Assembly: GCF_003790525.1 (NCBI RefSeq)
Contig: NZ_CP033635.1
Strand: one strand, 5' to 3'
Length of the DNA stretch: 64,000 bases
From: Escherichia coli
Lineage (GTDB): Bacteria > Pseudomonadota > Gammaproteobacteria > Enterobacterales > Enterobacteriaceae
Shown here: positions 48,594 to 50,880 of the stretch, in pieces
Position numbering within the stretch: position 1 is the stretch's first letter
How the letters are laid out: each line of letters begins with the position of its first letter
Translations under genes and position numbers: made by a program
Notes under the pieces: model-generated
What the model saw: only the letters and a program-made list of their open reading frames with translations
Databases searched by the model: none
Told to the model about the DNA's origin: nothing

Positions 48594-48724
48594 ATGAATA
48601 CTAACGTTTTTCGACTGCTCCTGCTGGGAAGCCTGTTCAGCCTTAGCGCCTGTGTGCAGCAAAGCGAAGTGCGGCAGATGAAACACAGCGTCAGCACACT
48701 GAACCAGGAGATGACGCAACTCAT
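48594..48724 (+). pseudogene. yajI: yajI lipoprotein gene, 5' fragment interrupted by an IS insertion
   Basis: MNTNVFRLLLLGSLFSLSAC (lipobox) ... EMTQL then the reading frame runs into IS-derived sequence and stops; the remaining ~134 codons resume at ~50473. Confidence 0.75.
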
Positions 48725-48766
48725 TGACATCCTCCACGCCCTGAAGGACGTGGATCCCTGCTACGT

Positions 48767-49975
48767 TCAGGCTGTCGCCTGAATCATTTCGGTGGGTTCC
48801 TGCTTCAACGGGCGGCCTGACTGCACCATCCCTCCACAGGCAAGAACGGCGTGCCCCGCCGCTAAAATGTTACGAGCGCCATTTACATCGGCGTTCGCTG
48901 TATATCCACATACCTGGCATCTGAATTGACTTTGTGACAGGCGATTTTCTTTCGCTGTATGACCACAGCACGTGCAACGCTGGCTTGTGTACGCTGGCGG
49001 AACAGCAAGCACCTGACCGCCACGCCAGAGCTGCTTGTACTCAAGCTGGCGGCGCATTTCATACCAGCCCTGATCCAGTACCGAACGGTTTAAACCTGAT
49101 TTTGCCCGGACATTGCGTCCCGGCTGGCTGACCGTACCCGCTGCTGACTTTGACATGTTGCTGACCTTCAAATCCTCAATGACTATCATTGCGTGGTTTT
49201 TGCTGACGGTCGTTGTGACTTTGTGAAGGTAGTCCCTGCGGATATTTGCGATACGGGAATGCAGTCGCTGTATTTTGCGTTTCTGCTTCTGCCAGTTATT
49301 GCTGAATTCGACCTTGCGGCTTAACTGTCGCTGAAGTCTCGCCAGCGTCTTCTGGTTTTTCTGAAAACTGTTTACAGGCTCAAAGACTGTGCCATCTGAC
49401 AGCGTGGCGAGTTTAGCCACGCCAGCATCCAGCCCGACCATTGATGCTGAAGGGTGAACCGGAGTGGATACTTCACTTTCTGTCTGAATACTGATGTACC
49501 ACTTACCGCAGGACTGGCTGACAGTGACATTTTTCACAACACCCGTGACCTGGCGGCTGTTCCGGTAGCGCATCCAGCCCAGTTTCGGCAGAAAAATACG
49601 GCTGTTTTCCTGATCGAGCTTAACGCCCTGCGGGTAGCGGAATGCATCATTCTGTCCCCGCTTTTTGAATCGGGGAAAAGCAGCCCGCTTCTGGAAGAAG
49701 TTTTTGTAAGCCCGCTCAAGGTCTTTCAGTGACTGTTGCAATGGCTGTGAGGGCGAATCTTTAAGCCATTGCGTTCCAGTGGCGTTTTTCCACTCAACCA
49801 GCCAGGAAGCCATTTTCCCGTAAGGGATGTATTTATTACCGGCCTCATGATTCTCATTCTGAAGCGCCAGAGCACGATTGAAAACGAAACGACATGCGCC
49901 TGCGAAGCGCCTCATTTCATGCTCCTGTTGACCACCGGGTCTTAACTGGAATTTAAATGCCTGTAGTCGTTTCAC
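48767..49975 (-). CDS. tnpB: IS605-family TnpB (OrfB; RuvC-like RNA-guided endonuclease family)
   Basis: 402 aa uninterrupted; N-terminal [13 protein letters not shown]...RFVFN; RuvC-I LDAGV, RuvC-II IEDL, zinc finger CTCCGH...CQVCG, Ruv[12 protein letters not shown]. Confidence 0.85.
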
Positions 49976-49997
49976 AGGTCAAATTATATTTTGGTCT

Positions 49998-50470
49998 GTG
50001 AAAAAAGAAACCGATATCCGGCGTGGAAGGCATTGTGTTTTCCTGATGCATGTTCACCTGGTCTTTGTCCCAAATACCGACGCCAGATTTTTGACCATGA
50101 CGCGACAGAAAAACTACGCACTTACTTTTCAAATGTATGTGCTGATTTTGAAGCTGAACGGGTTGAAATGGATGGCGAACCAGATCACGTCCATTTGTTA
50201 ATTAACTATCCTCCCAAACTGGCGATATCCAGTCTGGTAAACAGCCTCAAAGGTGTATCGGGTAGGTGACTGCGACGAGATCGACCAGATATTGCAGTCA
50301 GGTATTACTACAAAGGCGTTTTGTGGAGTCCTGGCTATTTTGCCAGTAGCTGCGGAGGTGCGCCAATATCCGTCATCCGCCAATACATTGAACAACAGCA
50401 AACACCTGGTCAGGTGGAAAACCGCGCCTTATATCCCCGCCCTGAAGGACGGGGTTTTACGGCGCACCGG
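49998..50470 (+). pseudogene. tnpA: IS200-type Y1 (HUH) transposase TnpA, disrupted by multiple frameshifts
   Basis: TnpA-like segments spread over three frames: HVHLVFVP / PKYRRQIF...HVHLLINYPPKLAISSLVNSLKG / WSPGYFASSCGGAPISVIRQYIEQQ. Confidence 0.7.
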
Positions 50471-50472
50471 AT

Positions 50473-50880
50473 AAAGAAACCGTCAAAATCACTCAGCAAA
50501 ACAGGCTGAATGCAAAATCCAGCAGTGGGGTTTACCTTCTGCCTGGAGCGAAAACACCGGCAAGACTGGAAAGCCAGATCGGTACTTTACGTATGTCGCT
50601 AGTGAATATTACGCATGATACAGATGGCACCACCCTGACGCTACGTATTCAGGGCGAGTCGAATGACCCCTTGCCCGCATTCAGCGGAACTGTTGAATAT
50701 GGGCAAATTCAGGGAACAATAGACAACTTTCAGGAAATCAATTTGCAGAATCAATTGATTAATGCCCCTGCCAGCGTCCTCGTCCCCAGCGATGTTGATA
50801 TTCCGTTACAGTTAAAGGGGATTTCTGTAGAACAGTTAGACTTTGTACGTATCCACGACATTCAACCTGTTATGCAGTAA
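50473..50880 (+). pseudogene. yajI: yajI lipoprotein gene, 3' fragment downstream of the IS insertion
   Basis: In-frame ETVKITQQNRLNAKSS...DIQPVMQ continues the YajI sequence; ORF-track Met at 50593 is internal. Confidence 0.75.

Follow-up and report, generated by a model that had tools for sequence, protein, structure and literature searches.

The lipoprotein gene yajI of Escherichia coli is split by a copy of the insertion sequence (IS) IS609 in contig NZ_CP033635.1 (assembly GCF_003790525.1), of which a stretch of 64,000 nucleotides (nt) was analyzed here as the reference window. IS609 belongs to the IS200/IS605 family, and it very probably entered yajI by the single-strand, 'peel-and-paste' transposition typical of that family, breaking the gene in two. 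The anatomy of the insert, its junctions with yajI, its target motif and its frequency in the species were established directly from sequence.

We aligned the window to intact yajI alleles from strains SCU-313, JNE25-003, K-12 NCM3722, NC101, O157:H7 TW14359 and GPEC1042. The empty site reads ...CAACTCA|ATAAAGAAAC..., and at the bar the window has 1747 bp (48724–50470), with 0 bases of yajI lost and 0 duplicated. At neither junction do insert and flank share their adjoining base, which leaves the borders of the insert unambiguous. A first-pass annotation of this DNA, made from the letters alone, had proposed a yajI gene split by an IS200/IS605-type element without target-site duplication, and the alignments bear this out: the two fragments join to the base into a contiguous gene. 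Two details of that annotation fell away. It had left about two codons unaccounted for at the junction; the Asn44 codon is in fact split A|AT, and Lys45 (AAA, 50473–50475) is intact. The apparent gap arose because the K-12 allele, which reads Asn-Gln at this point, was used for comparison, whereas the closest intact alleles read Asn-Lys. Nor do the fragments resume in frame. By tblastn, YajI amino acids (aa) 1–43 map to 48594–48722 and aa 44–179 to 50470–50877, in frames +3 and +1, respectively. As 1747 equals 3n + 1, the fragments lie in different frames of the window and are contiguous only in yajI coordinates.

The target was defined from the flanks of IS609 copies at seven loci (yajI, ydcL/ydcO, TetR/ytfB, yedK, DUF1869/yeaQ, gltX/yfeD and yidI). 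At all seven independent sites TTAT lies directly 5' of the left end, as TTTAT at five and CTTAT at two. On the right, the sites have unrelated flanks, and flanking direct repeats are absent from all seven. Since tnpB is on the minus strand of the window, that strand is the top (active) strand of the element in yajI; its left end starts at 50470 and its right end finishes at 48724. The motif 5' of the left end, which the first-pass annotation wanted defined, is therefore present on the minus strand, as TTTAT, although it sits at the right-hand junction in window coordinates. E. coli strains differ at this site. The antisense strand is TTTAT in Asn-Lys alleles, which fit the TTAT target, and TTGAT in Asn-Gln alleles (K-12, O157:H7), which lack it. 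Nothing specific on a yajI::IS609 allele or on the motif targeted by IS609 came up in a search of the literature.

The ends of the element have the form expected of the family (Table 1). The two subterminal hairpins, CCACGTCC-TTCA-GGGCGTGG on the right and CCCCGTCC-TTCA-GGGCGGGG on the left, are direct repeats, 90% identical and in the same orientation, rather than inverted repeats. At the left end, 16 nt separate the foot of the hairpin from the point of cleavage. By analogy with a related element, the AAAA just 5' of that foot (50455–50458, top strand) could be the guide that pairs with TTAT.

From knowledge of the family (PMC3201880, PMC5027513), we suppose that a Y1 HUH transposase, TnpA, would have catalyzed single-strand insertion at a replication fork, directly 3' of TTTAT on the antisense strand of yajI, the probable lagging-strand template. 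GC skew is negative on the plus strand of the window in all eight 8-kb bins, which puts the top strand of the element on the G-rich strand, that is, on the lagging-strand template. The active strand of IS200/IS605 elements is biased toward this template (PMC5027513). The orientation of IS609 in yajI is consistent with that bias, as a single insertion rather than a statistical trend.

Table 1. Features of the interrupted yajI locus, in window coordinates
Feature	Position	Strand	Basis
IS609 (IS200/IS605 family), 1747 bp	48724..50470	-	Borders against the empty site; ~98% full-length identity to copies annotated IS609/InsQ
yajI 5' fragment, nt 1-130 (Met1-Leu43 and first base of Asn44)	48594..48723	+	Match to intact yajI except for one synonymous difference
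yajI 3' fragment, nt 131-540 (last two bases of Asn44 to stop)	50471..50880	+	Alignment, tblastn
Fusion open reading frame, 62 aa: YajI 1-43 plus 19 residues encoded by the IS right end, then stop	48594..48782	+	Open reading frame list, translation
Target motif TTTAT (core TTAT), directly 5' of the left end on the top strand	50471..50475	-	Flanks of seven insertion sites
Left subterminal hairpin	50435..50454	-	Folds as single-stranded DNA
Right subterminal hairpin	48734..48753	-	Foot 10 nt from the element end; folds as single-stranded DNA
Right-end cleavage tetranucleotide TCAA, last four top-strand bases	48724..48727	-	Identical in 11/11 copies compared
tnpB (insQ-type), intact, 402 aa, GTG start at 49975	48767..49975	-	Pfam domains, homology to ISDra2 TnpB
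tnpA pseudogene (Y1 HUH transposase), GTG at 49998	49998..50425	+	Alignment to uninterrupted copies; RefSeq note
Predicted omega-RNA scaffold (tnpB 3' end and right end)	48724..48900	-	RNA fold of -74.5 kcal/mol, z = -2.7
Predicted omega-RNA guide, 5'-UGAGUUGCGUCAUCUC, 16 nt of yajI antisense just 3' of the right end	48708..48723	-	Published TnpB rule

We then asked what remains of yajI. Its product is a DUF3251 (SadB/YajI) lipoprotein, and nearly all of the domain is now on a different fragment from the signal peptide and lipobox. The 5' fragment retains the signal peptide and the lipobox L-S-A-C (residues 17–20) and matches positions 1–26 of the DUF3251 profile (Pfam); the 3' fragment matches positions 27–157 of 161 (E = 8.7e-71) and has no signal peptide. 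YajI is thus cut after residue 43; its upstream piece can yield only a lipoprotein stub of 62 aa, and the downstream 136 codons are left with no promoter-proximal start, signal peptide or lipobox. A promoter and terminator scan found promoter-like sites at chance level and none usable for the yajI fragments. No further copy of yajI was detected by tblastn in the 64-kb window. Because only the stub and a C-terminal part without a signal peptide can be encoded, yajI is almost certainly inactive and its mature lipoprotein lost, a strong inference from sequence that upholds the 'probably inactive' of the first-pass annotation.

This allele had already been flagged. The segment 48400–51000 (2601 bp) is 100% identical to strain SMS-3-5 and to >20 further complete genomes. 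On SMS-3-5, RefSeq annotates a DUF3251 pseudogene fragment lacking the C-terminus, an 'RNA-guided endonuclease InsQ/TnpB family protein', a tnpA pseudogene ('frameshifted; internal stop') and a second DUF3251 pseudogene fragment lacking the N-terminus.

The two genes of the element are divergent, with 22 bp between them. TnpB, an optional accessory protein in the IS200/IS605 family, resembles the ISDra2 TnpB along its full length (PDB 8bf8, E = 1.3e-53). Three Pfam domains score above their cut-offs: HTH_OrfB_IS605, OrfB_IS605 and the Cas12f1-like TNB domain (PF12323, PF01385 and PF07282). Residues D183, E267 and D363 align with the Asp/Glu/Asp of the RuvC motif, which in ISDra2 TnpB we take to be D191, E278 and D361, and C334/C337 and C353/C356 align with the zinc residues. 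On this basis the TnpB of the yajI-resident element looks catalytically competent. The tnpA frame is still recognizable, with its HUH motif (HVHLVF) and YIEQQ tyrosine region, and an uninterrupted sister copy matches Y1_Tnp (PF01797) with E = 2.3e-42. In the window, tnpA has a 1-bp deletion at codon 25, just past the HUH motif, and a TGA stop at codon 91. With a frameshift and a stop in tnpA, the resident copy cannot move by itself. IS609 showed no transposition in mutation-accumulation lines of E. coli K-12 (PMC5009759), which fits a dead tnpA.

Distinct variants were counted across 11 IS609 copies, the set also used to compare ends and build a tree. For tnpB there were 31 synonymous and 34 nonsynonymous variants, a ratio of nonsynonymous to synonymous rates (dN/dS) of roughly 0.3. 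For tnpA there were 8 synonymous and 23 nonsynonymous variants, plus stops and indels, which is near neutral. From these counts tnpB seems to be under purifying selection, the nuclease gene being kept while the transposase gene decays.

Several further features of tnpA were seen. No stop codon of IS609 itself closes its frame, which reads on across the left-end hairpin as far as a TGA in yajI, at 50507–50509 (region 50426–50509, plus strand); the C-terminal tail of the protein would thus differ from one insertion site to another. RefSeq labels every tnpA copy 'missing C-terminus'. The codon-91 TGA is common to IS609 at five loci (yajI, ydcO, yedK, DUF1869 and yfeD) and absent from the TetR/ytfB and yidI copies. 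Either copies with a dead tnpA spread in trans or gene conversion acted between copies. A 17-nt inverted repeat (82% complementary) at 49970–50003 spans the gap between tnpB and tnpA, and might serve as an operator or in translational control.

What might TnpB do at this locus? A TnpB protein works with an omega-RNA that derives from the 3' part of its gene and the right end of the element and takes its guide from the adjoining flank (PMC8612924). Applied to the window, this rule predicts a guide that is antisense to yajI (Table 1). The fold of the presumed scaffold is more stable than those of shuffled sequences. TTTAT would be the target-adjacent motif, and the predicted target would be TTTAT followed by TGAGTTGCGTCATCTC in empty yajI. 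An intact TnpB with such an omega-RNA, carrying a yajI guide of ~16 nt, would then cut a restored or incoming empty yajI that bears TTTAT, and this cutting would favor keeping the insertion. Homing by TnpB has experimental support in other IS605 elements (bioRxiv 10.1101/2023.03.14.532601), and the IS609 TnpB was among nine purified candidates of a screen (PMC12781874). A terminator-like hairpin with a T-rich run, a weak match, lies at 48686–48701 (minus strand), 22 nt beyond the right end in the yajI 5' fragment, and could be the 3' end of a read-through omega-RNA. Taken furthest, the yajI-resident IS609, with a dead transposase and a live nuclease, might be kept for the sake of its TnpB. TnpB could then be a site-specific homing nuclease that guards the insertion against loss, converts incoming intact yajI alleles and has helped to carry the occupied allele from one E. 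coli lineage to another. We regard this as a tentative idea, with the odds against it. Were it true, K-12-type alleles, with TTGAT at the site, would be immune.

We searched 5426 complete E. coli genomes for the insertion. Exactly 340 of them contain the region as a whole, and exactly 340 likewise contain each of its two junctions, so that ~6% of complete E. coli genomes are without an intact yajI. An exact 30-mer across the empty site occurs with TTTAT in 1889 genomes and with TTGAT in 2028; these counts are lower bounds (at least 1889 and at least 2028), as the remaining genomes differ elsewhere in the 30-mer. IS609 itself is widespread, with matches in 5015 of the 5426 genomes at a median of 2 places per genome and up to 9. 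Among the matching copies, some bear the annotation 'IS200/IS605-like element IS609', and insQ is part of the K-12 copy beside ydcO.

Carriers of the yajI insertion fall into at least two yajI haplotype groups. A second group, besides that of the window, comprises MEI003, PEC1021 and E-1246, which differ from the window by ~1.5% in the IS and at several sites in the yajI flanks; in PEC1021, tnpB has a premature stop at codon 386. The 11 IS609 copies compared are 1.3–2.3% apart. We built their tree as a means of separating one yajI insertion from several; it is star-like, and same-site copies do not cluster. The history may have been one old insertion, several insertions, or transfer of an occupied allele.

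The last of these histories is the strongest competitor to an insertion in the lineage itself. The lineage of the window could have received yajI::IS609 by homologous recombination, possibly stimulated by TnpB (homing), instead of by its own transposition. The occupied allele is on at least two diverged yajI haplotypes, each like a different empty allele, and the tnpA codon-25 deletion, common to the window and PEC1021 copies only, points to one origin and later spread. Homing by other IS605 TnpBs lends this history a mechanism. But copies of the IS that share a site differ from each other as much as from copies at other loci (24–27 versus 22–40 differences), the persistence of the TTTAT empty site in so many genomes gives no sign of a sweep, and vertical inheritance with recombination in the flanks fits equally well. 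We therefore consider such a transfer unlikely, though it deserves more weight than the other alternatives.

Three results weigh against the account of a gene lost to an insertion that brought in a live nuclease. First, an Rfam search for a curated omega-RNA family gave only hits below gathering scores (48711–48894, minus strand): HgcC at 23.8 bits (gathering 50), sot0042 at 17 (88) and RAGATH-18 at 28.1 (44.9). Second, private changes in yajI number 5 nonsynonymous and 2 synonymous in the window versus 4 and 2 in the intact SCU-313 allele. Third, yajI of the window minus the insert is a complete open frame of 179 codons, so decay of the gene is slight. As to where the hits and changes lie, the sub-threshold Rfam hits all fall where an omega-RNA would be expected, at the end (3') of tnpB and in the right end, and the private yajI changes are all within the 3' fragment. 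The changes in the yajI remnants give no clear sign of relaxed selection, the counts for the window being close to those of intact SCU-313.

The complete frame raises the question of whether yajI is silenced rather than lost, with TnpA supplied in trans by another IS609 excising the element precisely. Excision of IS200/IS605 elements is scarless (PMC3201880), the TetR/ytfB copies have neither the tnpA stop nor the frameshift, and the TTTAT form of the empty site, which such excision would restore, is common (at least 1889 genomes). Against such a reversible switch, the resident copy has a dead tnpA, no transposition of IS609 was seen in the K-12 mutation-accumulation lines, an active TnpB would cut the restored site, and one carrier, MEI003, already has an extra 1-bp frameshift in the yajI 3' fragment. 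A switch thus appears improbable, much more so than allele transfer. Recombination between copies of this multi-copy element is possible in principle, yet the idea that the split is an assembly artefact or a rearrangement (inversion or deletion) between two IS copies is refuted, with hardly any probability left to it, because the flanks are contiguous to the base with intact yajI and the gene order nrdR-yajI-tsx is the same in empty-site genomes, and both junctions occur in the same number (340) of independent complete genomes. The neighborhood of the insertion consists of ribD and nrdR (minus strand), yajI and tsx (plus strand), then yajD (minus strand).

We return to IS609 having entered yajI by single-strand transposition. 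So read, the case is ordinary: a known element behaving as its family does, at a locus already marked in RefSeq. Beyond annotation its import is small, namely that the junction is fixed to the base and the IS609 target is TTAT. The yajI locus could nevertheless be a convenient natural test, in E. coli, of the model in which TnpB acts to 'keep the transposon', as three kinds of allele are common in the species: occupied, empty with TTTAT (which should be cleavable) and empty with TTGAT (which should be resistant).

The closest known relative is the IS609 copy of K-12 itself, with insQ and a tnpA pseudogene beside ydcO. It is ~98% identical to the window copy over the whole 1747–1748 bp, and has the same divergent tnpA/tnpB layout, the same ends and the same TGA at tnpA codon 91. 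The window copy differs in lying inside yajI instead of in the ydcL-ydcO spacer, and in its extra 1-bp deletion at tnpA codon 25, which gives it a length of 1747 bp.

IS608 of Helicobacter pylori is the reference element for the peel-and-paste mechanism (PMC3201880). IS609 is like it in making no duplication, in inserting 3' of a fixed tetranucleotide at the left end and in having subterminal hairpins; moreover, both elements end on the right in TCAA, 10 nt past the foot of the hairpin (PMC3201880). The candidate AAAA/TTAT pairing of IS609 is drawn by analogy with the AAAG/TTAC pairing of IS608 (PMC3201880). The two elements differ in their target (TTAT in IS609, TTAC in IS608), in the distance of the left cleavage point from the hairpin foot (16 nt versus 19) and in the divergent arrangement of tnpA and tnpB in IS609.

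For TnpB, the comparison is with ISDra2 of Deinococcus radiodurans, whose TnpB is an RNA-guided nuclease (PDB 8bf8, 8exa and 8h1j). Homology extends over the full length, the RuvC and zinc residues are conserved, and an omega-RNA would be expected at the corresponding place, over the 3' part of tnpB and the right end of the element. The predicted target-adjacent motif of IS609 is TTAT/TTTAT, unlike the TTGAT of ISDra2. The K-12-type yajI allele happens to read TTGAT, the motif of ISDra2, at the very site where IS609 is inserted in the window.

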